Of a DNA stretch of 64,000 bases, positions 23,521 to 39,280 are shown piece after piece. The notes under the pieces are model-generated. The model was not told where the DNA came from and did no database searches. It was given only the letters and a program-made list of their open reading frames with translations. The first letter of the stretch is position 1, and the number at the start of each line of letters is the position of its first letter. The DNA comes from a virus (lineage: Duplodnaviria > Caudoviricetes), in the IMG/VR virus record IMGVR_UViG_3300001687_001195, positions 1 to 64,000 of that record. One strand, given 5' to 3'. The translations under genes and the position numbers were made by a program.

Positions 23521-24030
23521 GTGGCTTACATTCATGCAAAAGTAATTTGTGAGCATCTTCGGGATGTGTCGTTAATTGGCATGAAATCAGCCGCCCCGAC
23601 AGGCGTTGGCGCCAAGATCATTCAGCTTGGAGATCTAACATATTTTGCTGCGGGCATTAGCAACACGGTTATTCCCATCATTTTGATTAAGCCTATTCGG
23701 GCACCTTTTGATGAGAGCGAAGCCGGGTTGCTTAAAGCCGCGTACACATTATTAATTCGTATTGTGTACGTTCGATCGTACTCGGAAGCGTCGGGGGCTG
23801 TGTCATTAAAAATTCAAGATACAGAGAAGATCGTTGAAGCGCTTTGGAGTGATTGGTTGTTTGAAGGGATTACGCTTGATGCGGTAGGTAGTCAGATTTC
23901 ATCTTCCATGGTGACAGATGTTGATTTTGAACCGGAAGAAGATCTTTTTGCGTCAGCGTTGGATGAATCGTTGCAAGCCAGTGCGATAGAAGTTGAGACC
24001 ATGGTGCATGTGAATAGGAAACAATCATGA
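23521..24030 (+). CDS. Putative tail terminator
   Basis: Position before the tube gene; size; PIILIKP..IRIVY. Confidence 0.5.
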   Translation: MAYIHAKVICEHLRDVSLIGMKSAAPTGVGAKIIQLGDLTYFAAGISNTVIPIILIKPIRAPFDESEAGLLKAAYTLLIRIVYVRSYSEASGAVSLKIQDTEKIVEALWSDWLFEGITLDAVGSQISSSMVTDVDFEPEEDLFASALDESLQASAIEVETMVHVNRKQS

Positions 24031-24278
24031 AAATCGTAATTGAAACTGACGGACTTTCTGACAATACGCATATCCAAATCAACGGTGACGATTACAAAGA
24101 CATCATCTCATTTGGATTTTTTATCAAGGAACGTACTGATAAGTGTAAGTTGCAGATCAAACGTGCGGTGCCAGGAGCGCCGGATGCCTGGACGAACCTC
24201 TTTGGTCCAGAGATTTCCCGCTTCGATAATGATACAGCCAATAGAAGAGCCGCAGCGCCGCCTGCAACCGGAAAGTAA
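24027..24278 (+). CDS. Hypothetical protein
   Basis: ATGA-coupled small ORF. Confidence 0.55.
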   Translation: MKIVIETDGLSDNTHIQINGDDYKDIISFGFFIKERTDKCKLQIKRAVPGAPDAWTNLFGPEISRFDNDTANRRAAAPPATGK

Positions 24279-24298: not shown

Positions 24299-25366
24299 AT
24301 GCCGGATGCCGGACTTGGAAACAAATCATACGCCGGTCTCAACTTTGAGACAGCTTGGGGAACGAAAAATACCGATCTTACGCAATTTGAAGGTGTGGCT
24401 ACGGGGTTAAAACCCTGGATCGACATCAACAGTGAAACATTGACGGTGGAAGAACGTCCGCTGCGTAGTGCTTCGTTGACTGGTATTGGCCCGCTATACA
24501 ACAAGATCGCACCAGGACCGAGAGGGATTACTGGAGATATTGTTTGGACACCGAATTACGATTCGGAAACCATTCAACGTTTGTTCCGAGCAGCGATGGG
24601 GTTTTATCTCAATGTAGGTAACAATGAGATTCAGTACCGTCCAGATGACAAACTTCCAGCGGTGACTGCAGAAGTCCATCTCGACAAAACGGCCGTGCGT
24701 TTCTATGGTGGTTCAGTTTCTCAGCTTCGCGGAACCGTATCTCCTGATAGTTTCTTCGATATTACGGCAAGTTTCATCTTCAAAGATTTTGATGAAATTG
24801 CCTATGTCGATTGGAAGACAGTCTCATTCGATGGCACAAACAGGGATACGTTGATTCGCTCTGATCATCTTTCGATTGCGCGATTCACACCCGAAGGTGG
24901 AAGCAATATCGACATTGCCAGTGTACGTGATTTCGAGTTCTTCTATGACAATCGATTGAACCCAGATCGTCGCGTTCTCGGGTCACGGTTGATCAAAGAA
25001 CCTGACCGTACTGATCGATTGGCTACTGGTGGTCGCGCTGTACTTGAGTTTGACGATGCAACGCTGTTCTATCAATTCTATACACAGACTGTGGGACAAA
25101 TGATTTTCAAGTTCGACTCTGGAGAAGGAACAGCTTCCAGCGGTACGAACTTCAGCATCATTTTCGATTGGCCGCGTGCGCGAATTGCCACGGGCACCCC
25201 CACGGTAAACGCTTTCGGTATCATCACTCTCGAAGTGGAATGGGAAGGATTGCAGGGAGTAGATGGTGATTTCGGGACAGATGCAGCGTTGATTGCTACG
25301 ATCATTAACAATTCTCAACTTGCTGCGAATGCACAGCCTGCTAACTATACGTCCTGGACTCCATAG
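24299..25366 (+). CDS. Tail tube protein paralogue 1 (probable major tail protein)
   Basis: GLNFETAWGT, ETLTVE, ITGDI, DDKLPAVTAEV, DNRLNPDRRVLGSRLIKEP, GTPTVNAFGIITLEVEW. Confidence 0.75.
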   Translation: MPDAGLGNKSYAGLNFETAWGTKNTDLTQFEGVATGLKPWIDINSETLTVEERPLRSASLTGIGPLYNKIAPGPRGITGDIVWTPNYDSETIQRLFRAAMGFYLNVGNNEIQYRPDDKLPAVTAEVHLDKTAVRFYGGSVSQLRGTVSPDSFFDITASFIFKDFDEIAYVDWKTVSFDGTNRDTLIRSDHLSIARFTPEGGSNIDIASVRDFEFFYDNRLNPDRRVLGSRLIKEPDRTDRLATGGRAVLEFDDATLFYQFYTQTVGQMIFKFDSGEGTASSGTNFSIIFDWPRARIATGTPTVNAFGIITLEVEWEGLQGVDGDFGTDAALIATIINNSQLAANAQPANYTSWTP

Positions 25367-25392
25367 TGATCTTGGTTTGATGGAGATGGTCG

Positions 25393-26526
25393 ATGACGCT
25401 CGATCCTCTGTCTGGTCGCTCGACATACGCATTGATTGAATTGGAGACCGAGTACGGTCAGCGACCATCTCCATTCCCCGGTACTACACACCAATACGTT
25501 CATTTTACGAGTGAAGATTTCGATAAGCGAATGGATAATCTTGTTTCTCCGAGGTTATCATCTGAACGAGTACCATGGACGCGAGTATACAGAACGAATC
25601 AATATGTTGAAGGAACGTTGATTTTTGAATTGGGGTATAAGGGTGCTGAATTACTTCTACAAGCCGCGTGGGGAGAACGCAAGACTACGAACTTTGCGAG
25701 AAACCAAGCTCCTGAAGTTTACAATCATCTTTTTTTGACGGCTGCTGATTTGCCTTCTTTCACGATGGAGGTTGGGTTTGGCAAAAGAGCATTGCAATTG
25801 TATGGTTGCGTGATTAACACGATTACCTTAACAGCATTGTCGATGGGATTCGTGGTTTGCAAATTAACGGTTGTGGCGCAACGTGCGGAATTGTTTAGAG
25901 TACCAAGTGCTGAAGTGCCGGTACGCACTCCTGTAATACACGATCAAATGATTACGGGTACACATCATGGCGGGATGATTCTGATTTGGTACTCTGAATC
26001 GCCTGGTACGGAAACATACATTCCTTCGCTATCTTCCTTTGAAGCTACACTAGATAATAAACTTCGTATTGCTTATCCGCTTGGTAGCGATTTGATGAAG
26101 AAGCCTGCGCGCGGAGACTATCGGCAAGTCTCTGGACGATTTGTTGGGGAGTTCAATGACCCGGCATTCGATGCATTTCGTCATTATTCATCTGCACAGA
26201 AATGTGTGTGGATACAGTATGCGACGAATGGCGTGAATGTACCTATCCCAACTGGCCCTGGATCTAATCCAAATGGAAATGTTCCTGGCTATGATTTCAC
26301 GATTGAATATAGAGGCAATAAATTAGATCTTCGTTCGGCTACTCCGAAGATCATGGATACGGGTGTAGTCATTTTGGATGTTCCGTTTGAAGGGTACTAT
26401 GATGTAAGCGGAACGCAAAGCCCGCCGAACCCTCCGGAATTGTTGTGGAATGATGAACCATTCATTTTTAGGACGCAGAATGATTTGAATGGTCTTCTGT
26501 TGTCCGCTTTGCAGAGAAGTACTTAG
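25393..26526 (+). CDS. Tail tube protein paralogue 2
   Basis: LIELETEYG, VEGTL, ADLPSFTMEVG, LYGCVINTITL, LDNKL..LGSDLMKKP, ATPKIMDTG..LDVPF. Confidence 0.75.
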   Translation: MTLDPLSGRSTYALIELETEYGQRPSPFPGTTHQYVHFTSEDFDKRMDNLVSPRLSSERVPWTRVYRTNQYVEGTLIFELGYKGAELLLQAAWGERKTTNFARNQAPEVYNHLFLTAADLPSFTMEVGFGKRALQLYGCVINTITLTALSMGFVVCKLTVVAQRAELFRVPSAEVPVRTPVIHDQMITGTHHGGMILIWYSESPGTETYIPSLSSFEATLDNKLRIAYPLGSDLMKKPARGDYRQVSGRFVGEFNDPAFDAFRHYSSAQKCVWIQYATNGVNVPIPTGPGSNPNGNVPGYDFTIEYRGNKLDLRSATPKIMDTGVVILDVPFEGYYDVSGTQSPPNPPELLWNDEPFIFRTQNDLNGLLLSALQRST

Positions 26527-26536
26527 GAGTGATGTC

Positions 26537-27127
26537 ATGGAGCGTAAACCATCCCCAAAGCCCGAAGGAATTGAATCGGATGCACAAGCATCCATGATGC
26601 AGCAGTTGCGGGAAGTTGATCCGGAGATCGCAAAGAAGGGAATGCCGCTTAAGCCAGTTGCCGAGGCGGCAAGGCCACCGGAAAAACCTGTGGAACAGAA
26701 ATCAGAATTGGCGGTTTTAACAGGGCGATGCGTTTGGGATACCGAAACAGAAATGTGGACGGATCGCTTTGGCAAGAAACATGGAATCCATGTCTTAGAC
26801 TTTGGGGATCTTGGTGAGTTTGAGCGGCGCCATGGTGAGTTGAATAAAGCATTTGAAGACAAAGACAATCAGTTGAATCTGATGCTTACCCTAACTTGGC
26901 TGGCCATTCGTAAGGAAGGATGTTCGGATGATGATTTGGATCATGAACGATTCAAATACACACGTCCGGCTGTTGGCCGCATGTTTGGGATTAATGATGG
27001 AGCCGTTCTGGTACGTGTTGCCATGAATGTTCTCAAGGCAAGTGGGATGGACATCGATGTAGATGACCTGGGAAACCAACTGGAGGCGGGCGAAGAGGAA
27101 GAGCAAGCGCCCGCCGAGGACTCCTGA
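26537..27127 (+). CDS. Tail assembly chaperone (gpG-like)
   Basis: SD AGGAG; acidic C-terminus; slippery site near the end; tail-module position. Confidence 0.65.
   Translation: MERKPSPKPEGIESDAQASMMQQLREVDPEIAKKGMPLKPVAEAARPPEKPVEQKSELAVLTGRCVWDTETEMWTDRFGKKHGIHVLDFGDLGEFERRHGELNKAFEDKDNQLNLMLTLTWLAIRKEGCSDDDLDHERFKYTRPAVGRMFGINDGAVLVRVAMNVLKASGMDIDVDDLGNQLEAGEEEEQAPAEDS
27070..27076 (+). promoter_or_regulatory. -1 ribosomal frameshift slippery heptamer G GGA AAC
   Basis: X XXY YYZ in the correct frame of the chaperone; the -1 frame stays open to 27267. Confidence 0.75.
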
Positions 27128-27135
27128 TCAAAGGA

Positions 27136-27267
27136 ATGTGGGCGAGCATCTTTTTGCTGATGAAAGAAAAAGGGTTTTCCATGCGCGAAATCCGTCGTAT
27201 GACGCTGCCTCAGCTTCAGTGGTGGATGAAAGCGATGGACATTGCGCGCGAGGCATCCAAGCGATAA
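27136..27267 (+). CDS. gpT-like chaperone extension (missing from the ORF track), probably made as a G-T fusion
   Basis: MWASIFLLMKEKGFSMREIRRMTLPQLQWWMKAMDIAREASKR, a typical gpT-like EIxxMTLxQL motif. Confidence 0.7.
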   Translation: MWASIFLLMKEKGFSMREIRRMTLPQLQWWMKAMDIAREASKR

Positions 27268-27279
27268 TGGGAGGGTTCG

Positions 27280-28383
27280 ATGGGGCTCGGCACGCCAACT
27301 ACAGTGACGCCGCGCCAAGGCCGCGATCTTTATGTAATTATCAAAAGGGAAGAAGAGTATGGGGTAGTTCCCGATGATTTTTACATAGATGCGGTGTACT
27401 TGGATGCATCTGGAGAAACGATTCAACTTGCCCGCGAAAATCTGTACTCATCAGGAGTTCGCGGGCATGGTCATAAATACAATAGGGTCGTAAGCGGAGC
27501 AGCAGGTATTTCAGTTGGCGGGGACTTTCTATCTGACATACAGTACAAAGGTCTTGAAACACTTTTGTACGGTGCGCTCGGTGGATGGGCCTACGCACAG
27601 CCTGATCCAACCAATTCTCCTACCGTGTATAGTCATGCCTTTTACCCGGTAGATGATTTACCATCGTTCACAATTGAGATTGGTAAGGGGAAACAAGTAG
27701 GCGCCGGATTCCGCTATACAGGGATTATGGTCAATTCATTGACTCTTGGTGTCTCTGCAGATGGATTTTTGACAGGAACGTTCGGTCTGATCGGAAAAGA
27801 TGTCGAAGCGATTAACCCTACTACGGGGTATGCGATCACGTATGAACAACTTGTAAATTCTACTCATTTGGTGACGATACGATTCATTGATATTACTCAA
27901 ATTGTGAAAGACATCAGTGCAATTGTTGGGTACGCGGTGTCGATTGACAATCAACTTTCAAACGATCGTCGTTTTTTGGGAAGTGCCAATATTCAGAAGC
28001 CACAGCGTACAGACAAACGCAAAGTCAATGGCCGTATTGTGATGGAAGTTGGAGATGAAATTGTAGATGCGTTTACATCTTTCTATTATGGCTACCGACA
28101 TGACATCTTACTGAATTTTTTGGGTACTACTATTGATGGCATCTTTAACAAGAGTTTCAGCATTCGTACATTCCGTACTGAGTTTCGTGGTGGAACGCCT
28201 TCTGTGGTAAGTGCAGGGCGCCAACATGCTGATGTTCCGTTTGATTGCTTCTCCGATACGATTGAACCAATCCCTCCTAACTTTACCTTTGATGGGGAAA
28301 TTCTTTTGGGCATGACGAATGATCAAGTGCCGCCTGCTTATGCAACGAGCATAGGTGATTTTGACGAAGACTTTGCTTTCTAA
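27280..28383 (+). CDS. Tail tube protein paralogue 3
   Basis: IIKREEEYG, VGGDF, DDLPSFTIEIG, YTGIMVNSLTL, IDNQLSNDRRFLGSANIQKP, GTPSVVSAG..DVPF. Confidence 0.75.
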   Translation: MGLGTPTTVTPRQGRDLYVIIKREEEYGVVPDDFYIDAVYLDASGETIQLARENLYSSGVRGHGHKYNRVVSGAAGISVGGDFLSDIQYKGLETLLYGALGGWAYAQPDPTNSPTVYSHAFYPVDDLPSFTIEIGKGKQVGAGFRYTGIMVNSLTLGVSADGFLTGTFGLIGKDVEAINPTTGYAITYEQLVNSTHLVTIRFIDITQIVKDISAIVGYAVSIDNQLSNDRRFLGSANIQKPQRTDKRKVNGRIVMEVGDEIVDAFTSFYYGYRHDILLNFLGTTIDGIFNKSFSIRTFRTEFRGGTPSVVSAGRQHADVPFDCFSDTIEPIPPNFTFDGEILLGMTNDQVPPAYATSIGDFDEDFAF

Positions 28384-28392
28384 GGTAAACAA

Positions 28393-31300
28393 ATGGCGCG
28401 TCGTACCGGGCAAATGAATGTTATCTTCAAAGGCGAAGATAAGCTTTCTGCCGTCGCGCAAAAGGTAACATTAGCGCTCGGAGAGGTTGCGCGTGCGGGG
28501 CAACTTTCTCGTGCTGCTTTAGGATCTCTTGGCATTGGCGTTGCTGCTGCATTTCCAGAACGGAGTGTACGTAGAGCCAGGCAATTTTCAACGGCTACTG
28601 GACAAGTCAGAAGTAAAGTTGGGGAAGCCAGCCGTGCCGTAGCGCGCATGAACAGTATCATGGGCGCTGCTGGACGCCGCGTAGGATTTGCTACGAAGGC
28701 GATGGCTGGCTTTTTTGCGGTGTTCACGGGTATTCGAGCATTACGGGCGACAACGACGCTGTTGGCTGAGTTTGATGACACGATGGCGCAGGTAGGAGCC
28801 ATCTCTAGAGCAACTGCACGAGAGTTCGAGTACTTGACGAAGACTGCTCGTGCTCTTGGCGCCACGACAAAGTTTACTGCGAAAGAGTCTGCTGAAGGTC
28901 TTCTCTATCTTGCGCGTACCGGGTTTAGTGTTCAGCAATCGATTGCTGCCGTTCGGGCGACATTGGACTTAGCTACGATCGGCTTCATGGATCTTGGAGA
29001 GGCAGCCGATTACGCATCTAATATCGTTCAGCAATTTGCTCTTCGAGCGGAAGATACACGGCGCGTTGTGGATGCAATGGTCGTCGTATCGAACAACGCC
29101 AACACCAATATTCAGCAGCTAGCTCAGGCGTTGAAATTCGCTGGACCCCTTGCGGGCGCTCTTGGGCAAGAAGTAGAAGCTACGTCAGCCGCAATTGGCG
29201 TATTGGGAGATCGCGGTCTTCAAGCAACTCTTGCTGGACGTGGTTTGCGCGGAGTGATGGCTTCTTTGTTGAAGCCAACTGATGAAGCCCGCACTGTATT
29301 GACACAGATGGGCATTGCGCTGGATAAGATCAATCCAGAAGCGCATAATCTTGTTTCCATCTTCAAGACATTGCGCGGCGCAAATCTTAGCGCTAGCCAG
29401 GCATTGCGTATATTCAATCGTGAATCGGTGAACCAGGCATTGATTCTGATTCGCAATGTCGAATCAATGGAGGATCTTATCGATCTTCAGAAAGAATTGG
29501 CGGGGGAATCGAAACGCATCTCTGACGTGATGCAGAGTACGCTTGGCGGGCAATTCAAACAACTTCGTTCCGCAATGGAAGAATTTGGACAGTCGCTTGG
29601 AGAAGCAGGACTGACCAAATTCTTGAAAGACAGTACACAAGTTCTTACTGAAGCCATTCGTATTCTTGCGGGCTTTGAAGGCGCCGCACAAGAAGCTAGT
29701 GAAGGGGGTCTACGTCTTGCGCATGTGATTAAAGTTGTTACGGCGGGATTAGCAGCTTTTGTTGCTATGCATATTGGTGCATTTTTGATTAATCTCGGAC
29801 GGATGTTGGTTGTTACAGGTATTTCATTTTTACGACTTGGTAACAATATTCGGTTGGCTACGGCAGCTTTGTTCCGGTACAACCGTATATCTACAGGAGC
29901 AGCCGTTGCGACAAGGATCCTTGCGCGAAGTGTGCGTGCATCAGGCATTTCTTTTACCAGCATTGCATCATTAGTAGCAACTGCGGTAATTGTTTTCGCA
30001 TCGTTCAGTAGCAAAGCAAGTCTCGTTGACGAAGCGATGCGAAAGCTCCCGAACCGTTTTCATGAGTTTGCATTAGCTGCCGAAGAAGCAATCAAAATAA
30101 AAGTCCGCTTTGACAAGGCAATGGTGTCTGGGGATCAAGAGAAAGCGCTCCGTAGATTAACTGAACTTCAACATAATGCTAATGAGCGTGCGATAGAAAT
30201 TGAAGCACGTATCCGGAAACTTGGGGAAGCTAAAGTTCAAATTCCGATTGAAGAGATTGAACAAGTAATTCCTGTTATTCCCGAAATTCGGTTTTTTCCT
30301 CATCATCGTGCTGCTGCCATCAGAGAACTTGAACCAGTACTGCAAGAAATCGCTAAAAAGCTGCGGCTGGAAATTGAAATTGCTCCTGGCATCGTAGATA
30401 CACGAGCACTTCTGATGCTGATTCGTCAGTTTGATGATTTGAGGGAAGCGATTCGTGAAGCAGAAAAGAGAGGACAGGATTTTGATCTTACGTCGCTGAT
30501 TACGAAGTTTGATAGAGTCACTTCGATAATTGGCGAATATATTGTGAATCTAAAGGATAAAACCCGCATAAAACTTATTGATCTTCTTGCTCCTCTACTG
30601 ATGGAGATATATGCTGCGCAAGTCGAGCTTGAAAAAGTAACGCGTTTATATGGAGCACGGGGAGTTCAAGTACCTGCTGAAGAAGCTGCAGCGTTACGCA
30701 GGCGCATTCAGGATGCGACAAAGAAGGCAACAGAGGAATTACAAAAATTCGCTAAGAATGCAGATGCGCTATCAGGGAAAGCCGCAAAGAAATTTATTGA
30801 TGATTTTAACAAAGCTGTAATTGGGAGATTTCGAGAGCTTGGAAAAGAAGCGCCGAAGGGCAAGCCACCTGTTTACGATCCGGTGGAGATGGACAAAGCG
30901 ACAATCGCTTTGGAACGCTTGATAAAGGCTACACAATTTGAAACTCAGCTTATAGGAGAATCGGCATCTAAAAAACGGATTCTAACGGCTTTACGGGAAG
31001 CAGAAGCACATGCTCTCAAGATTGAAGAGACAGAGCGTAAGAAGCTCATTGCGCGGTATCGAGAAGCGTTAGAGCTTCAAGAACGGGAACTTGCTAATTG
31101 GGAACGGCAAGAGGGCGAAAGAAAAGCATCTAAAACAATTGGAGACATCATTCAGCAATTGGATCGCCGCATCGCTTTGATGAAGGTAGATGCAAGTATT
31201 GCTGAGACGATGCGGCAAGTTTGGGATGCAAATGATAAGGTAAATACGAAAAATATATTTACATTCTTGAAGTTCAACGCCGTCTTGATGGCTCGTCTTT

Positions 31301-34026
31301 TGATTTTGCGAGCTTTGGAGCGAAAGGAAGAAGAACGAAGAAAGAAGCAAGCAGAGGAAGAGCGTAGAGAGGAGCGACGTAAAGCTGGTGGGGAAGACAT
31401 CAAGCGCCGTATTCGAGATCTTGAGTTCGAGGTTTCGTTAATAGGTAAGGGGACGATTGAACGTGTTCGCGCGATTGCACAGCAAGAGCTTCTCAATATC
31501 GCTATGGAGACCGGCGCTGAGGTTTCCCAGAGGATGCTCGATCATGTAGCTGCGCTTGCAGAGACTCTCGAACGGGCTGCGCAAGGGTCTCAGAATCTTG
31601 CTCAAGATTTCAAGGAAGCGCTGGCGGAGGGCGGAGTCTCTCAGGCGACGAATGTTGTTTTCGACAACTTGAAGAGACAGATTCGCGGAACGGAAGAGGA
31701 AGTTACAGTTTTCAGCGCGGCGCTTGGGGATGCCTTTGAAGATGCTGCACGAGCGGGAATGGATGCCTTTACCGATGCTTTATTGGATCCTCTTGTAAAA
31801 GAGTTCCAGCGAGTTTTCGGTGACAATGGTGTTTTGACAAAGATTCTCAGTGCATTTTTCGATACATTCCTGCGGATGATGATGCAGGGGCTTGTTTCGC
31901 AACTTTTTGCTGGACTTGGGATCCCAGGACTCGGCGGAGCGAAACCTGGACCGTTTTCGGTTTCATTGGCGCCTAGCACAAATTATGACATTGTAGGCGG
32001 CGGCGGTGGCGGAACATCGCAATTTACGGGCGGCGGTGGAGATTTTGGCACAGCCGCGCCTGAAGGGGCTGCTCCGCTAGGCATTCCGGATAAGCAAGGA
32101 AAACAGCCTCCATTAACTCCCATCATTCCGTTTGTGTTGCCTCCTCCAACGGCGCCAAGACCCAAACCTGTTCCTATCCCGCGTAGAAAGCCTTTTCCGG
32201 CCCCTCCGCTACCGAAACCACCGGAAGGGGGCGCACCCCTTGGTGGTGGTGCTGCGGGGCCTCCTGTGCCTCCAAGGCCCCCTAGAAGGCCATTCGCACC
32301 CTCTCCCATGGGAATCCTGCGACCGATTTTTGCTCGACTTTCGCAAGCATTCCCGAAGGCCCGGCGTGGGCAGCAGTTTCCGACATTCGGAGCATTTGCA
32401 CAGGCGCTTCAGGCGGGCAAGGTGGTTTCTGCACCACGTCCGCTTGCTACAGGACTGCCGGGAGGGTTAGACCGCTACTTAGCGGCGCCAGAACCAGCGC
32501 CCGGAGGTGGAGGGGATTACGGATCAGCCGCCGCTCCTCCAATGCCAGAGGCCATAACGCCTTCGAGAACAAGGGGAGAAGGGGCTGCTCCTATTCCTGG
32601 GCGTTCGCCTTTCGGGATTCGTGGACAAGCACCAGGATTATCGAACATTGATTTTAGTTACTTAGGTGCGCAGATTGGGCAAGTTCTGCCACCGAAGGGA
32701 GCCCAAGTTGCGACATCGTTGGCGGGTTTGGGAGGAGCCGTTTCGAGTGGATTAGCGGGCATTCTTGGCCCATCGAGTGCGCTGGCTGGAGTACTTGGGC
32801 CTATCGGAGCAGCGTTAAGCTTGGCAACGATCGGAGCTACGCTAGGGATTGAGAGTTACACGCAAGGCAAGCAACTTGATGAGATTATCAAAAGCGGATC
32901 ATTGAAAGATGTGGACAAAGCGTTTGGTCGAATGGAACGTCGTTCGATGTATACGCTTTGGAATCCTTTCCTTTGGTCTGCGGCGAATCTTCCAGGTCTA
33001 TTTACTTCAAAAGCATTCAAACCAGGAGAGAAGATAAGTGCTGCTGGTCTTGGAATGTTGGCAGCAGCGCCGCTTTCTATCTTGGCTTTCGGCCCTTTGG
33101 GTATCATTGCGGCGATTGCAGGTATCGGTCATATCTTCAGTAGAGCGCGTAAACGTGCAAGACGGAGGTTGAAACGAGAACTGCGGCGGTTGACAAATCT
33201 TTTGCGGGATCAAGTCAAGGCGGCATTACCAGACACGGTTACACCTGACTATCTTGCAAAGTTGGATCGCATTTTTACAGCGGATTACCTTTCGAGAGAT
33301 GAGTTAAATCGAATTGCTTCGGAAGGTTTGGATCCATATCGGGATCTTGAACTTAATATTCTACAGCGCAATCCAGCTTTCCAAGCGTATCGTCGTGCAT
33401 CTGGGGCACCATACTTAGCGCCTGGCGGTTCTGCTCCTCTTGGCATTCCTGCCATCAACCAGCCACCTATGGCTGAAGACTCGGTAACGCGTTTAGTGAA
33501 TCCGGATGGCTTGGAATCCGGTTTGAAAGCTATACAAAGATACCTTGTTCCTCTAATTGAAGATGTACGTGTATCGGAAGGTATTCGTGAGTCAATGGAT
33601 TTGTCAGTGCCATTGGCTCAATTGATTCCACATAGATTCACTAAGCAAGCTCTTTCAAGGCATCCGGAAGTCTTTCCTGAAGTTGAAACGCATGAAGGCG
33701 CCAAAGATTCCCCCTGGATGTTTCGTCCACTTACTGATGGGCTCTTGACTAAACTGACTAAGGCAATACGCCCAACTCAAACACTTGGGGACGTGACCTT
33801 TTCTCGTGGGGCAGAACAAGCACTTCTTTCTGCACGCGAAATCTATCTTGGTCAGATGCAACGATTGGGATCTAGAGGACAAACAGTCGTGCAAGTGGGA
33901 GCACCACAACTGAGCGTAAATGCCAAGCTTTCTGGAGGTTATTCTGTAGAGATGTTGGCGCGCGATTTGAGCTTCCACACAGCCAAGAGTATTGGAGCGT
34001 CGTTGGGTACTCTTTCTAATGTGTAG
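28393..34026 (+). CDS. Tape measure protein (TP901-type core)
   Basis: EFDDTMAQVGAIS, ARALGATTKFTAKESAEGLLYLARTG, NTNIQQLAQALKFAGP, GLQATLAGRGLR; long helical middle; hydrophobic segments. Confidence 0.93.
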   Translation: MARRTGQMNVIFKGEDKLSAVAQKVTLALGEVARAGQLSRAALGSLGIGVAAAFPERSVRRARQFSTATGQVRSKVGEASRAVARMNSIMGAAGRRVGFATKAMAGFFAVFTGIRALRATTTLLAEFDDTMAQVGAISRATAREFEYLTKTARALGATTKFTAKESAEGLLYLARTGFSVQQSIAAVRATLDLATIGFMDLGEAADYASNIVQQFALRAEDTRRVVDAMVVVSNNANTNIQQLAQALKFAGPLAGALGQEVEATSAAIGVLGDRGLQATLAGRGLRGVMASLLKPTDEARTVLTQMGIALDKINPEAHNLVSIFKTLRGANLSASQALRIFNRESVNQALILIRNVESMEDLIDLQKELAGESKRISDVMQSTLGGQFKQLRSAMEEFGQSLGEAGLTKFLKDSTQVLTEAIRILAGFEGAAQEASEGGLRLAHVIKVVTAGLAAFVAMHIGAFLINLGRMLVVTGISFLRLGNNIRLATAALFRYNRISTGAAVATRILARSVRASGISFTSIASLVATAVIVFASFSSKASLVDEAMRKLPNRFHEFALAAEEAIKIKVRFDKAMVSGDQEKALRRLTELQHNANERAIEIEARIRKLGEAKVQIPIEEIEQVIPVIPEIRFFPHHRAAAIRELEPVLQEIAKKLRLEIEIAPGIVDTRALLMLIRQFDDLREAIREAEKRGQDFDLTSLITKFDRVTSIIGEYIVNLKDKTRIKLIDLLAPLLMEIYAAQVELEKVTRLYGARGVQVPAEEAAALRRRIQDATKKATEELQKFAKNADALSGKAAKKFIDDFNKAVIGRFRELGKEAPKGKPPVYDPVEMDKATIALERLIKATQFETQLIGESASKKRILTALREAEAHALKIEETERKKLIARYREALELQERELANWERQEGERKASKTIGDIIQQLDRRIALMKVDASIAETMRQVWDANDKVNTKNIFTFLKFNAVLMARLLILRALERKEEERRKKQAEEERREERRKAGGEDIKRRIRDLEFEVSLIGKGTIERVRAIAQQELLNIAMETGAEVSQRMLDHVAALAETLERAAQGSQNLAQDFKEALAEGGVSQATNVVFDNLKRQIRGTEEEVTVFSAALGDAFEDAARAGMDAFTDALLDPLVKEFQRVFGDNGVLTKILSAFFDTFLRMMMQGLVSQLFAGLGIPGLGGAKPGPFSVSLAPSTNYDIVGGGGGGTSQFTGGGGDFGTAAPEGAAPLGIPDKQGKQPPLTPIIPFVLPPPTAPRPKPVPIPRRKPFPAPPLPKPPEGGAPLGGGAAGPPVPPRPPRRPFAPSPMGILRPIFARLSQAFPKARRGQQFPTFGAFAQALQAGKVVSAPRPLATGLPGGLDRYLAAPEPAPGGGGDYGSAAAPPMPEAITPSRTRGEGAAPIPGRSPFGIRGQAPGLSNIDFSYLGAQIGQVLPPKGAQVATSLAGLGGAVSSGLAGILGPSSALAGVLGPIGAALSLATIGATLGIESYTQGKQLDEIIKSGSLKDVDKAFGRMERRSMYTLWNPFLWSAANLPGLFTSKAFKPGEKISAAGLGMLAAAPLSILAFGPLGIIAAIAGIGHIFSRARKRARRRLKRELRRLTNLLRDQVKAALPDTVTPDYLAKLDRIFTADYLSRDELNRIASEGLDPYRDLELNILQRNPAFQAYRRASGAPYLAPGGSAPLGIPAINQPPMAEDSVTRLVNPDGLESGLKAIQRYLVPLIEDVRVSEGIRESMDLSVPLAQLIPHRFTKQALSRHPEVFPEVETHEGAKDSPWMFRPLTDGLLTKLTKAIRPTQTLGDVTFSRGAEQALLSAREIYLGQMQRLGSRGQTVVQVGAPQLSVNAKLSGGYSVEMLARDLSFHTAKSIGASLGTLSNV

Positions 34027-34034
34027 GAGCCATC

Positions 34035-34403
34035 ATGCCGAAATCCGATACCGTTCAAACCGTTGTAGACGGGGTTGCAGTTGCTTCTGGAGCCGGATAC
34101 ACGACTACGGCTACGCTTGACATCAGTGCATCCTACGAGACCGTCTATCACATCAGTATCCAGAATGATACGACAAACGGCCCAACGACCGTTGGCGAAG
34201 TAATCATCGAAACCAGTCCTGATCAAAATAACTGGTTTGAGTACGGAAGCCCCGTAAAAGGCATTACGACCGCGAACGATGGCCGAGAAACTTCTGTGAT
34301 CGTGCCTATGGGGCATAAGTACTCGCGTATTAAGTACGGCGGTAACTCTGGTGGCGGGGATGTTACATATACGGTGATCGAGACTAAAGTGATTTCGATC
34401 TAA
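34035..34403 (+). CDS. Small Thr-rich beta-sandwich tail protein
   Basis: Composition and position after the tape measure gene. Confidence 0.55.
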   Translation: MPKSDTVQTVVDGVAVASGAGYTTTATLDISASYETVYHISIQNDTTNGPTTVGEVIIETSPDQNNWFEYGSPVKGITTANDGRETSVIVPMGHKYSRIKYGGNSGGGDVTYTVIETKVISI

Positions 34404-36040
34404 TGAGTTATCTTGTTAAGCCAGCAACTCCAATATTGAACGAGAGACATTCATTAGCGCACATGTTAGCAGGCGCTTGGATGTTTCCGGAGGGGGGAGG
34501 TCGTATTGCTACAGACTTCTCGCGGCTGGCAGCGCACGGAACGGTCAACCTAAGTAACGGATTTTATCCTGGATGGAGCCCGCAATTAATGGGTTATGTG
34601 ATGGACTTTCCATATGGAGGGTACATCAATGTTCCGAATTGTGAGCTTTACAATCAGGATGAGATGAGTGTTGAGTTACTTGTAACATTTAATCAACTGC
34701 CAAGCGTAGCAGCAAGTATTTTTGACATTGCTAAAGTAATTCACAGTTCATCTCCTAGTAAGTCATGGAAGCTATCGGCCGGACCTACGGACATTATTGC
34801 ATTGGTCGTTGAAGACGATACAGGATCAAGCTTTGTAACGCTTGTGCAAGGATCTTCTTTCAGTATCAATACTTGGTACCATGTTATCTGGACTTTAGAC
34901 GGAGCGGGGAATGTTACGCTCTATATTGATACAGTCGTCGAAGATACGGATACTCTTGGGTCTGGGAAGATCTACAAAGCGGATGGAGTTTTGCGTTTTG
35001 GGGACGATACAAACTACTTTGATGGCGAGATAGCTCACCTTCAGATTTGGGGGCGGTGTTTAACGTCGGATGAAGTTGCTCAACTATTTCATGACGGCTA
35101 TCAAGCATATCGAGAACCGCTCACAAAACATCTATTCATTTCGAGTGAGTACTACACAGCAGTATCCGGAGGAGGGGAAGATTTAGTTGATCCTGTTTTT
35201 CTTGCTCGATATGCAGGAAAACAAGGGTTGGATCTTCGCAATGATTATGGTTTGGAGGAGATGGAGTGGGTTCAAGAATCAAATCTTAATCCAAGTATGA
35301 TTAAGGGGGTGCATGGAGCATCGGTAACAGCAGGAGCATTAGGTGCGAAAGTGTTTGGCTTACGGGGGGTGATCCGAGAAAGTAATGCACAACTTTGTTA
35401 CTTTAGGCTGAACAGACTCTCCGCCCATCTAAAGTTACTGGATCAAGCAACGTTTTGGATTTGGGAAGACCGCATGATCTACGCGATGGGCGGAGACTTG
35501 AAATGGAATTTCTTACCAGGGACAGGCGGAAAAGCAGCATCTTGGACGGCACAGATACTTGCTTTAGATCCGTTTTTCTCTGATCAAGCTGGCGGCGAAT
35601 GGCTAACACCGACGATTATCACAACGATAGAAAATCCGTACTTGGCGCGCAACAAGGGTACGGCGCCTACGTGGCCTATCTTCATTGTTGAGGTTGGAGC
35701 AGCGAATGGAATTTCTAATTTCATCAAAATCACCAACCACACGGTTGATCCGCCATGGATGTTTCATTTGGGACTCCCATTTACCCTTCCATATCACGCT
35801 GGAGGTCCACAAGAGCAGATTATTATCGACGGATCCATACGTGAAGTTGTATGGATTCCAGCGGCGGGTGCGAGTGCGGGAAAACAACTCAATGTCACAG
35901 GTTGGCACAATGCGGGCGATTTCGTTTGGCTAGAAGGTGGACCCGAAAATGGTAAATGGAATGATCTTCGCTTTCAATGCGGAGGAGCATCGCCTTCTGG
36001 TGGAAGTGTCAAAATGCTTGTAAGACATCAGTGGTACTAA
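34403..36040 (+). CDS. LamG/ConA-like lectin domain fused to a distal tail (Dit)-like domain
   Basis: N-terminus: WYHVIWT..LYID..FDGEIAHLQIW; C-terminus: FWIWEDRMIY, LALDPFF, NKGTAPTWPIF. Confidence 0.65.
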   Translation: MSYLVKPATPILNERHSLAHMLAGAWMFPEGGGRIATDFSRLAAHGTVNLSNGFYPGWSPQLMGYVMDFPYGGYINVPNCELYNQDEMSVELLVTFNQLPSVAASIFDIAKVIHSSSPSKSWKLSAGPTDIIALVVEDDTGSSFVTLVQGSSFSINTWYHVIWTLDGAGNVTLYIDTVVEDTDTLGSGKIYKADGVLRFGDDTNYFDGEIAHLQIWGRCLTSDEVAQLFHDGYQAYREPLTKHLFISSEYYTAVSGGGEDLVDPVFLARYAGKQGLDLRNDYGLEEMEWVQESNLNPSMIKGVHGASVTAGALGAKVFGLRGVIRESNAQLCYFRLNRLSAHLKLLDQATFWIWEDRMIYAMGGDLKWNFLPGTGGKAASWTAQILALDPFFSDQAGGEWLTPTIITTIENPYLARNKGTAPTWPIFIVEVGAANGISNFIKITNHTVDPPWMFHLGLPFTLPYHAGGPQEQIIIDGSIREVVWIPAAGASAGKQLNVTGWHNAGDFVWLEGGPENGKWNDLRFQCGGASPSGGSVKMLVRHQWY

Positions 36041-36041
36041 C

Positions 36042-36959
36042 ATGGGTACTGTATTTCCAACAAAAATGCTTTTTCGTCTGGGAGAACTACAGACGAATCA
36101 AGGCTATGGTCTTGATGAAGATGATTACACAATTCCTGGAGTAAAGTTACTTAGGAACCCGATCTCAGTTATCGATTTTGAAGATAATTGCCCAGAGCAT
36201 ATTGAACGAGAAACAACACCAAGCATTAGCGGATCAGCAATAAAGGATGTTGTGACTCGTGCTCCGAGGCAAATGCGATTGAAATTAGGAGTTCATGCAG
36301 GGCGAGATGACTTTGCAAACAAAACGAAAATCTCAGGCCGTTCAGCGTACGATGCTTTGCAGTACTGGCTATACCAGAATCTTCAAGAAGCTAAAATGCA
36401 TATCTGGGATACGCGTTATGTGAAATATTTCGTTGGCGAACAGAAATGTCAATTCATTCCAGGCATGAGTCATGACAATATGGAAGTTGATTGTAGCTTG
36501 TTTGGAGCAGATCCATTTGTCTATTCAACTGTGAATGAAGGCGGTCGCCATCCGTGGCTGTACGATAACATCAGTGATCTTGAATGGGCAGGTACGACAT
36601 CTGGGCGCAATGCCGGAGATGAAGTTGCTTATCCTTTAATGTCAATTAAGAATACGCATTCAACGCGTACATGGACAACGGGCTATAAGTTGACGCATCT
36701 TGGTTTGCAAAGAGATATAGTTTGTACTGTGCATATTGCTCCTGGCCAAACTCATTTACTTGAATTAGGAAGAGTGCGAGGTTGGCTTGATGGACAAGCA
36801 GTAACAATAGGTATAGGTGGAGTACCTCTTTGGTTGCGTCCTGACGGTATCAATGATGAGTTTCGCATACAGCAATTGTTTCCACAATCAGTAGGAACAC
36901 GTCCGCCTGAAGACAATATTGTGATTCTATTCTCCTGGGTACCGAGGTATCAAATCTAA
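36042..36959 (+). CDS. Second Dit-like protein
   Basis: PRQMRLK, MHIWDTRYV, FGADPFVYS, NAGDEVAYPLM parallel the motifs of the upstream Dit-like domain. Confidence 0.6.
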   Translation: MGTVFPTKMLFRLGELQTNQGYGLDEDDYTIPGVKLLRNPISVIDFEDNCPEHIERETTPSISGSAIKDVVTRAPRQMRLKLGVHAGRDDFANKTKISGRSAYDALQYWLYQNLQEAKMHIWDTRYVKYFVGEQKCQFIPGMSHDNMEVDCSLFGADPFVYSTVNEGGRHPWLYDNISDLEWAGTTSGRNAGDEVAYPLMSIKNTHSTRTWTTGYKLTHLGLQRDIVCTVHIAPGQTHLLELGRVRGWLDGQAVTIGIGGVPLWLRPDGINDEFRIQQLFPQSVGTRPPEDNIVILFSWVPRYQI

Positions 36960-39280
36960 TGGGCTTTCCTCGCGGACTACCACCGGGCAATCTCATACGA
37001 CCAAGAGCACGTTGCTGGTTTGTGAGAGTTAGCCCCTCTGTTGTAGGTACTCTTGCGTTTGGAAGTCTTACGCCAAATCAAACAGGAACGATTACTGGAG
37101 AACGATTGACGGCAGTATCGAATCCGGAAAACGAGTTGGCTTCTGTTGCTGCATTCGATCGAGATCGTATTTACATGTTGGATGGCCGCATTCAACATCT
37201 CTCATGGGAATGGAATCGTATTGGAGGATGTGGTGCTTTCAGTTTAATTTTTACTTTAGATAGGTATCGTAAATCATGGGGTGTTGAACGTACATATGTA
37301 GAACCACCTTCTGAACTTCCGGAGCAAGACGCTGCTTCAGGTAGCGAAGATTCAGCGTTAATGCCGGATTTACTGCAAACGAATTTACTTACTGGAGTTC
37401 TTTTTTTAGATGATGAAGGAAATCCAGTAACACTTGCCCGCATGTTAAAGGAACGATGGGAAGTAGAGATTGAAGTCGATCTTTCTACATTGGAACCGGC
37501 AACGCCTGTTTGGCGAACGGTATACAGAGGCACACTTCATAAAGCGCGCGTACTTGGGTCTTCACATGGCGGCATTGCGTACTATGCTTCTGGGTTTGGG
37601 TTGATTGACGAATTGCGTCGAATAACAGTTAGCTATAATTACGATTACGATGTATTGGGCACTGAATATACGGTGGAAAAATTAGTAGCCCAAGCGATTG
37701 TAAATCATACAGTCGCGCGAACGCGCGTCTTGTGGAATCCTGAATTAATCGAAACGATTTCTACGGATACGATTCGACGTTTCGATGCACAAGGCTCAGT
37801 TCTGAGAACTATACAAACGCTGGCTTTTTATCATGGCGGTATTGAATGGGGCGTGAATCAAAACGGTGAATTTTACTTCATGCCTGAGAGTACGATAGCT
37901 CCTCCAGCGGGTGTAGGGATACATTTGATTACGCGAAGTGCTGTTGGAGTTGATCTTGAACAGGAGAATGAGCAGGCCCCAACGCATGTAATAGCTATCG
38001 GAAAGGATCTTGGCGGAAGAGTAGCTCAGGGGGAGGCGATTGATTTAGACAAAATAGCCAAGAACGCAGGTACATCTGAACGGTGGATCCAAGTGCCTGA
38101 GTTCATTGATGAAACGGATTTGAATCAAGTTGCTTATCGATACATTCAAGCAGCTTGGGCAGGACAAGATTCAGCACAGATGAATTTAGCAATGCGGATC
38201 ATCAAACATGAAGTATTGGATCTGCTTGAAACTGATTTGCCTCTTAAGAAAGTTTCGTTCAGTGACGATTTGCATGGTTTCTCTATCATTGCTTATCCTG
38301 AGAAGATTCAATATCAGGCTGGTTTTGATACTGACCAGATATTGCGGGCAGAAGGTTTGACGATTGACGAAGTACAAGACATGAAGTTACGCGCTTCTTA
38401 TGTCTTGGGTCGCGGGTATCGTACTCTTGCAGATGAGTTTGAACGTCGAGATCAACCAATCCAATCATTGATTACACGAAACCGGCAACGAGAATACCCA
38501 AGGTATACCCGGCGTCATGCAGATTTGCCGGATGGGCAATACCCTGGTGAATTATTTTGTCGTGAAACAGGTGCTTTAACAGGTATCTATGCCTGGTTAG
38601 AAAATCCCGACAATCAATTAAGAGGCTGGTGGCCTCTGATTTCATTGATGGCGAACGTGGATTTCACTCCTGTTGGAAGAAATGCATCATCGACTACGGA
38701 TGCTGGTAGTTCTTCTAATCCATCGACAAAGAGTAATGATGTTGCGTATTTTGCTCATGGGAATGCAGCGAATAATTTTCTTCATTTTTCTGCCGGATTT
38801 CCTGGTACTGGTGAAATGAGCGACATGGCAATTACCATGGTTCCTCGTTTTGCTTTAACGAATGCTTTGTCTCTTGGGGAATCTATCGAGCTTGTATTTC
38901 GCTATGCAATGATTGCTGTTGGCGCCAATGTGAATACTGCTCAGTTTGAAGAACGTAGGATGACTTTAGAGTATGAGCATCTGAAAGATTATGCAGCAGG
39001 AGATTTGATTGAGCGATTTGGATGGGTTTTGTTTGCGCGCGACTTGACACAAAATTCTGAACTACAGATGTACTTTGGTAGATTTGGACTGGACCCGCGA
39101 GACTACCATCCTTATGATCTGGAAGTCTACAGTCCAAAGATCATGATGGGTCCGTTTCGAGCGATCGATTTGTCAGGACAGGCGTTTGTGGACGCCAGCC
39201 GTCTCGGAGTTGGAACTTCTGTCGAGGCGTACTTTACAGACTTTGCTTCGCTGCTGGCGCTCCCGAGTCGGAGAGCATAG
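36959..39280 (+). CDS. Baseplate hub/Tal-like protein with a C-terminal beta domain
   Basis: VYRGTL, ASGFGLIDEL, IEWGVNQNGEFYF, THVIAIG; position after Dit. Confidence 0.6.
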   Translation: MGFPRGLPPGNLIRPRARCWFVRVSPSVVGTLAFGSLTPNQTGTITGERLTAVSNPENELASVAAFDRDRIYMLDGRIQHLSWEWNRIGGCGAFSLIFTLDRYRKSWGVERTYVEPPSELPEQDAASGSEDSALMPDLLQTNLLTGVLFLDDEGNPVTLARMLKERWEVEIEVDLSTLEPATPVWRTVYRGTLHKARVLGSSHGGIAYYASGFGLIDELRRITVSYNYDYDVLGTEYTVEKLVAQAIVNHTVARTRVLWNPELIETISTDTIRRFDAQGSVLRTIQTLAFYHGGIEWGVNQNGEFYFMPESTIAPPAGVGIHLITRSAVGVDLEQENEQAPTHVIAIGKDLGGRVAQGEAIDLDKIAKNAGTSERWIQVPEFIDETDLNQVAYRYIQAAWAGQDSAQMNLAMRIIKHEVLDLLETDLPLKKVSFSDDLHGFSIIAYPEKIQYQAGFDTDQILRAEGLTIDEVQDMKLRASYVLGRGYRTLADEFERRDQPIQSLITRNRQREYPRYTRRHADLPDGQYPGELFCRETGALTGIYAWLENPDNQLRGWWPLISLMANVDFTPVGRNASSTTDAGSSSNPSTKSNDVAYFAHGNAANNFLHFSAGFPGTGEMSDMAITMVPRFALTNALSLGESIELVFRYAMIAVGANVNTAQFEERRMTLEYEHLKDYAAGDLIERFGWVLFARDLTQNSELQMYFGRFGLDPRDYHPYDLEVYSPKIMMGPFRAIDLSGQAFVDASRLGVGTSVEAYFTDFASLLALPSRRA

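Follow-up and report, generated by a model that had tools for sequence, protein, structure and literature searches.

Three anciently duplicated tail-tube genes in one siphovirus tail module, and the possibility of mixed tube rings

Here, three full-length paralogous tail-tube genes, named A, B and C, are identified in the tail module of an uncultured siphovirus (Duplodnaviria; Caudoviricetes) represented by the IMG/VR record IMGVR_UViG_3300001687_001195. The stretch of DNA analysed, referred to below as the window, comprises positions 1 to 64,000 of that record, which is 80 kb long, classed as a provirus and about 62% complete; the genes of the window lie on the + strand throughout. Gene A (24299-25366) encodes 355 amino acids (aa), gene B (25393-26526) 377 aa and gene C (27280-28383) 367 aa. 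The best reading of the data is that A, B and C go back to ancient duplications and serve as non-redundant tail-tube subunits, and all three genes encode a protein whose solved relatives build three-subunit rings. A tentative proposal, plausible but short of probable, is that the tail tube of the clade to which this phage belongs is built from A-B-C heterotrimeric rings.

An earlier note, made from the letters of this DNA without database searches, had described three full-length paralogous tube genes here, and the open reading frames (ORFs), the pairwise alignments and the family matches bear this out. In BLASTP comparisons A and B are 24% identical (E 7e-12), A and C 28% (E 2e-21) and B and C 25% across 371 columns, that is over their full length (E 2e-31). 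All three pass the curated gathering cut-off of 27 bits for Pfam PF18906 (Phage_tube_2), with scores of 43 (A), 31.8 (B) and 68.7 (C) bits, and all three match phrog_290; the 80-kb record as a whole has no PF18906 match beyond these three. The shared motifs listed in the note were likewise found, namely ExxWG/ExxYG, LPSFTxEV (LPAVTAEV in A), DNxL..(DR)..LGS (without the DR in B) and TPxVxxxG. What had been overlooked is that the stretch holds more than three genes: a putative tail assembly chaperone gene (26537-27127) and its -1 extension (to 27268) lie between B and C.

AlphaFold2 produced high-scoring models of A (predicted local distance difference test, pLDDT, 91.4; predicted template modelling score, pTM, 0.89) and of B (pLDDT 90.7, pTM 0.90). 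In Foldseek searches the top match of both models is the tail tube of Thermus phage P74-26 (8ed0_A), with template modelling (TM) scores of 0.76/0.78 and E 3e-19 for A and of 0.71/0.77 and E 1e-18 for B, followed in both cases by 8xan and then by pb6 and p140 of T5 and DT57C. From these models, A and B are predicted to consist of two tandem beta-sandwich tube domains per chain, of the P74-26 type. C is probably of the same two-domain type, judging from its Pfam score, its alignment with B, its match to positions 3-317 of the 320 positions of the family hidden Markov model (HMM) and its sequence match to 8xan_B, the major tail protein of SH-Ab15497 (E 2.5e-4), which is the only direct match to a PDB sequence. 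A profile of 122 family members matches 8xan with E 3e-35 and P74-26 gp93 (8ed0) with E 7e-29. The placing of the three paralogues in a siphovirus tail module as tube genes thus holds, but their affiliation with the two-domain, trimer-ring type of P74-26 and T5 had been missed. Since proteins of this family carry a pair of tube domains on each chain and close a ring with three such chains, a heterotrimeric ring becomes an obvious additional hypothesis.

A search of 1.8 billion representatives returned 324 relatives, among which there are separate orthologues of each of A, B and C. The relatives that belong to the same clade as the window phage include the contigs L001, L005, L006, L010 and L016, most of which are cut at their ends. 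L010 carries A, B, the chaperone gene (G), its extension (T) and C; L005 carries A, B and G, where the contig ends; L006 carries a cut A, then B, G, T and a cut C; L001 carries a cut B, then G, T, C, the tape measure gene and tip genes; and L016 is one further fragment. All three copies are found together in the window and in L010, and the cut contigs hold whatever copies their length permits. The order A-B-G/GT-C-tape measure is seen again in at least three other metagenomic phages (L010, L005 and L001/L006), so that both the copies and their arrangement recur. In phage collections, megablast of 10 kb and tblastn of A matched nothing, tblastn of C matched only single-copy phages at 25-30% identity, and single-protein scans of viral contigs did not find relatives; with only four or five phages known, the clade is too small for coevolution tests.

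In a maximum-likelihood (ML) tree that also takes in 70 further members of the family, the group of each paralogue is one clade with support of 99-100, and A, B and C together form a single clade (SH-aLRT, the Shimodaira-Hasegawa-like approximate likelihood ratio, 95) with the topology (A,(B,C)) and a long stem for each group. Because of this single clade, topology and long stems, two duplications are placed in the ancestor of the clade, well before its members diverged. An HMM built from the family alignment was scanned against other fetched loci, the nearest sister lineages (P0012, P0024 and P0007) being left out, and 24 of 24 loci (22 viral-contig loci of other subfamilies, Ab18 and TIN2) hold one copy each within the available DNA; there was thus no pre-existing second role for the family that needed filling. 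Some single PF18906 tube genes encode longer proteins of 436-448 aa (L017 2619-3926, L018 6787-8109, L019 9995-11311 and L021 9968-11311). These are not two-copy fusions; they carry an insert of about 100-110 aa in domain 1, after profile position ~95-107, which is presumably an outward decoration domain and is absent from P74-26.

Orthologue identity within the clade is 53-65% for A, 33-53% for B and 53-64% for C, and the same genome pairs give 49-57% for the capsid protein and 33-50% for the portal. A and C are accordingly among the best conserved proteins of the module, on a par with the capsid protein (A 62% and C 57% against 57% for the major capsid protein, MCP), and B is average. The reading frames of all three are intact and each copy is kept in all relatives found, which rules out pseudogene decay. 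The earlier note had envisaged that only one protein might adopt a tube fold or that two might be decaying; instead, A and B are modelled with the fold, C joins them by sequence, and no copy shows decay. Distant Foldseek matches include the tube protein SPR bound to DSR2, and such DSR2-type sensing of a tube protein (PDB 8ygm/8ygc) shows only that tube proteins can trigger defence. That one or two of the copies stay out of the virion, as an assembly factor, a decoy for defence sensing or a spare near loss, is very improbable, given that all three are intact in every relative at 33-65% orthologue identity, are far older than the clade and retain the polymerisation loops and conserved core, and that redundant genes would not last so long in phage genomes.

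The state of the copies was compared with that of single-copy relatives at about 100 conserved positions, defined as those with one residue class in 75% or more of the single-copy members. Each of the three paralogues departs from the conserved class at about 12-15% of these positions, which ranks them at the 80th-92nd percentile of deviation among single-copy proteins (68th-92nd at a 90% threshold). By this measure all three lie within the range of bona fide tube proteins, and none is clearly more canonical than the others. All of them retain the Loop1 and Loop2 hairpins, net positive on an acidic body. In B, the DR is missing from the Loop2 motif N-L--DR--LGS in all four orthologues, with the hairpin and its positive charge kept; B also has a surface insertion and is the fastest-evolving of the three. 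The N-L--DR--LGS motif is the most conserved of the family. The N-terminal arm of C is 13 residues long, against 4-8 in the other two, and its C-terminal tail is strongly acidic; A has glycines at positions 133 and 140, which are hydrophobic in 78% and 100% of relatives, respectively.

These features bear on a rival arrangement, about as plausible as mixed rings, in which one copy is the major tube protein and the other two form specialised homotrimeric rings, one or a few of each, in the manner of T5 pb6 and p140, next to the tip as initiator or adaptor, next to the terminator, or anchoring other parts as T5 p140 does. Specialised rings are the sole arrangement in solved tails so far (the T5 p140 trimer, the HFTV1 BTC trimer and T4 gp48/gp54), and they would suit the faster evolution of B relative to A and C, the setting apart of C directly 5' of the tape measure gene, and its long arm and very acidic tail. 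No copy, however, can be singled out either as a major protein left unchanged or as an adaptor that has diverged strongly: the three are 24-28% identical, have equal architecture and all lie 5' of the tape measure gene, unlike T5 p140, and A and C are both conserved like the capsid protein. Furthermore, single-copy relatives manage without extra rings of the PF18906 family.

In the mixed-ring proposal, a homotrimer-forming ancestor would have been duplicated twice, each copy keeping the ring-to-ring hairpins, and the lateral faces would have diverged until each copy suited a different neighbour. All three products would be virion proteins, co-assembling within one ring and entering the tube in about equal amounts, and the trimeric rings of the window phage would stack around a trimeric tape measure; with a rise of ~40 Å, a tape measure of 1877 aa would correspond to ~70 rings. 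The number of paralogues, three, equals the number of ring subunits in the family, and because of this equality mixed rings are slightly preferred over special rings.

A possible trace of such lateral divergence was found by placing the intra-ring contacts of gp93 on the family profile, through HMMER sequence alignment and not through coordinates; the mapped contact residues are Phe123 and Tyr130 in domain 1 and Ala253, Val322 and Ile328 in domain 2. At profile positions 123 and 235 (gp93 F123 and A253) a basic and an acidic residue are paired in 59 of 148 family members, co-occurring above expectation, and this pair is compatible with a salt bridge across the subunit boundary. The C orthologues have K/K/K at position 123 with G/G/G at position 235, the A orthologues L/L/F with D/E/D, and the B orthologues F/F/M/Y with N/N/G/N, so that B keeps neither half; in C, moreover, a Gln is conserved at position 290 of the domain-2 face, which is hydrophobic in 96% of relatives. 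C seems, then, to have an ancestral-looking domain-1 edge and a derived domain-2 edge, and A the reverse. The split halves resemble complementary interface loss, a hint that would predict contact between domain 1 of C and domain 2 of A.

Several points weigh against mixed rings. All solved tube paralogues (T5 pb6/p140, T4 gp19/gp48/gp54 and HFTV1 BTC) form separate homomeric rings; the lower conservation of B (33-53% against 53-65%) is not obviously expected of three equivalent ring members; and the chaperone genes separate C from A and B. The interface argument concerns few positions, mapped by sequence alignment to gp93, and on the turn concerned all three proteins carry a lysine two residues on. 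A covariation score between the domain-1 (D1) and domain-2 (D2) edges (148 members, nine D1-D2 pairings) was equal for homomeric and heteromeric rings, with the two kinds of cycle indistinguishable and the window and L010 in disagreement, and it was dropped as evidence because it did not separate them. As to abundance, the Shine-Dalgarno sequences of A, B and C in the window equal or exceed that of the capsid gene in strength, but the strengths are not consistently high in relatives, and C starts with GTG in L001; Shine-Dalgarno strength was rejected as an abundance proxy because the ranking in the window is not kept in relatives.

Mixed A-B-C rings are also to be set against a tube that is heteropolymeric along its axis, with homotrimeric rings that either recur in the order A3-B3-C3 or are grouped into long blocks. 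Such a segmented tube is unlikely. All copies keep Loop1, Loop2 and the charges of positive loops and acidic body required for ring stacking, and high stoichiometry would be possible for all three, fitting the strong conservation of A and C; but a known mechanism for switching ring type along a tape measure is absent, the tape measure as examined has neither repeats nor zones, and the derived residues that can be mapped sit at lateral, intra-ring positions and not at ring-to-ring positions.

The gene order itself is distinctive. In the window it runs tube A, tube B, G/GT, tube C, tape measure, and in the single-copy relatives Ab18 and TIN2 it runs terminator, tube, chaperones, tape measure; a tube gene sitting between chaperone and tape measure is unusual. 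The module is a tightly packed operon in which chaperone set, tape measure and tip genes each occur once. Because this single set is kept as a block in relatives, the alternative tail types suggested in the earlier note are unlikely. A scan for promoters and terminators gave fewer sites than in shuffled sequence, and internal signals above chance were not found.

The gene between B and C, G, has an open frame that reaches upstream to 26489; with the ATG at 26537 taken as the start it encodes 196 aa (26537-27127). A G GGA AAC heptamer at 27070-27076 opens a -1 frame of 65 codons, which runs through a small ORF to a TAA stop at 27266-27268. L001, L002, L003, L006, L007 and L010 have this heptamer too, in the matching frame and at the corresponding place (at 1249 in L001, 11648 in L010 and 2328 in L006), and the G orthologues in L001 and L010 are ~47-49% identical to that of the window. 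Neither the 196-aa product nor the 65-aa extension has a Pfam or PHROG match. On the strength of the slippery site, the acidic C-terminus of G and its location in the tail module, two genes 5' of the tape measure gene with tube C in between, the gene and its -1 extension are assigned as a G/G-T tail assembly chaperone of a previously unannotated family. The G/G-T arrangement is reportedly classic in long-tailed phages.

Upstream of the tube genes, the window carries genes for the portal (from 16012), a protease (from 18436), a scaffold-like protein (from 18996), the MCP (from 19579), a head-tail adaptor (from 22054), a second adaptor-like protein (from 22640) and a Neck1-like protein (Neck1/tail completion, from 22996). 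These are followed by a 169-aa gene (23521-24030), which by comparison with phage Ab18 is in the tail-terminator position, and by an 83-aa gene (24027-24278) directly 5' of tube A. Both small proteins are without a Pfam or PHROG match, and both genes are kept in L010 and L005, at 40-42% and 51-56% identity, respectively. The 83-aa gene may go together with the extra tube genes. The identity of its product is near that of the capsid protein (49-57%) in the same genome pairs, and single-copy relatives such as Ab18 are without a gene at its place. The 1877-aa tape measure protein (28393-34026) matches many PHROG tape-measure families (best E 7e-66), and the genes 3' of it (34035-39280), the first of them at 34035-34403, encode proteins of 122, 545, 305 and 773 aa, the 545-aa one with a Laminin_G_3 domain. 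A recognisable distal tail protein (Dit) was not found among these, hhalign detected no relation of the 169-, 305- and 545-aa neighbours to the PF18906 tube family, and there are no recognisable collar or immunoglobulin (Ig)-type matches among the neighbour genes of the window, several of which match nothing.

Tail tubes are textbook homopolymers, and models of tip initiation, of the tape measure as a ruler and of chaperone delivery all take a single subunit for granted. Full-text searches of the literature turned up no account of a tail tube that is heteromeric or made from three paralogues. If rings of A, B and C are formed, this would be the first heteromeric siphovirus tail tube, with a helical repeat of three different two-domain chains, and a viral case in which duplication and complementary interface loss made an obligate hetero-ring out of a homomeric one. 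Such a tube would lose its three-fold symmetry and gain a fixed rotational register, it would present three chemically different stripes on its outer surface, and it would raise the question of how chaperones bring three subunits in order. If the copies form special rings instead, the clade would show how a P74-26-type tube makes its junctions with the tip and the neck, of which no description was found in the literature for P74-26-type (PF18906) tails.

The closest structural model is gp93 of P74-26, which belongs to the same Pfam family and ranks first in structure for both A and B. Each of its chains holds a pair of beta-sandwich tube domains, and it forms trimeric, pseudo-six-fold rings with a 40 Å rise and a -44.75 degree twist, in which long Loop1 and Loop2 hairpins plug into sockets of the next ring and positive loops stack on an acidic body, and it self-assembles in vitro (PDB 8ED0; Agnello et al. 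2023, PMC10034513). P74-26 is described with this one tube protein in homotrimeric rings, whereas here there are three genes, whose products are about 14-15% identical to gp93 and do not have its 18-residue insertion. In T5, the tube proteins pb6 and p140 are two-domain, trimer-forming proteins that arose by gene duplication (PMC10038345, PDB 7QG9). There, p140 makes one trimeric ring at the tip, between pb6 and Dit, where it serves as the anchor for collar and side fibres, with the p132 collar wrapped around it; its identity to pb6 is 9%, the Ig domain of pb6 is missing from it, and its gene follows the tape measure gene, in the baseplate cluster (PMC10038345). T5 thus has two copies, of which p140 is diverged, simplified and placed with the baseplate genes, whereas the three copies of the window are alike and precede the tape measure gene; strong divergence combined with a T5-type placement is not seen in A, B or C. 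BTC of HFTV1 is likewise a trimer, pseudo-hexameric in form.

Tubes of the PF18906 family are also found in the Pseudomonas YuA-like phage Ab18, Tsukamurella phage TIN2 and Acinetobacter phage SH-Ab15497 (8XAN). Ab18 and TIN2 follow the same logic of neck, terminator, tube, G/GT and tape measure, with a single tube gene before the chaperones and, unlike the window with its C, no gene between chaperone and tape measure.

Several tube paralogues per siphovirus are not unique to this clade, and the view in the earlier note that siphoviruses have at most one specialised paralogue was too strong, two or three being annotated in actinophage clusters. According to genome announcements, clusters EL, AM, AU, AW, BI, CC and DJ have two major tail proteins, and Microbacterium phage Camille (MH153800, L040 5907-9405) has three major tail protein genes, gp17, gp19 and gp20. 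The Camille products are 42-48% identical across their N-terminal ~220 aa and have C-terminal extensions that are not alike; a Pfam search at E <=0.1 matched none of them, so that by sequence they do not belong to PF18906, and no sign of a trimer-forming type was found for the actinophage sets. As in the window, several paralogous tube genes share one siphovirus tail operon, but the Camille copies are far more alike. No explanation of the actinophage sets was found in the literature, and Camille and its kind, being cultured, make the question of multiple tube genes workable at the bench. What is new in the window is the combination of three ancient copies, a family that builds trimeric rings and a conserved, odd gene order.

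Homomeric rings that became obligate hetero-rings are familiar from cells, in the PCNA1-2-3 clamp of Sulfolobus and in the Vma3/11/16 c-ring of the fungal V-ATPase. In both, complementary interface loss has been the route and there are as many paralogues as places in the ring; a tube of A, B and C would be a viral analogue of these cellular rings.

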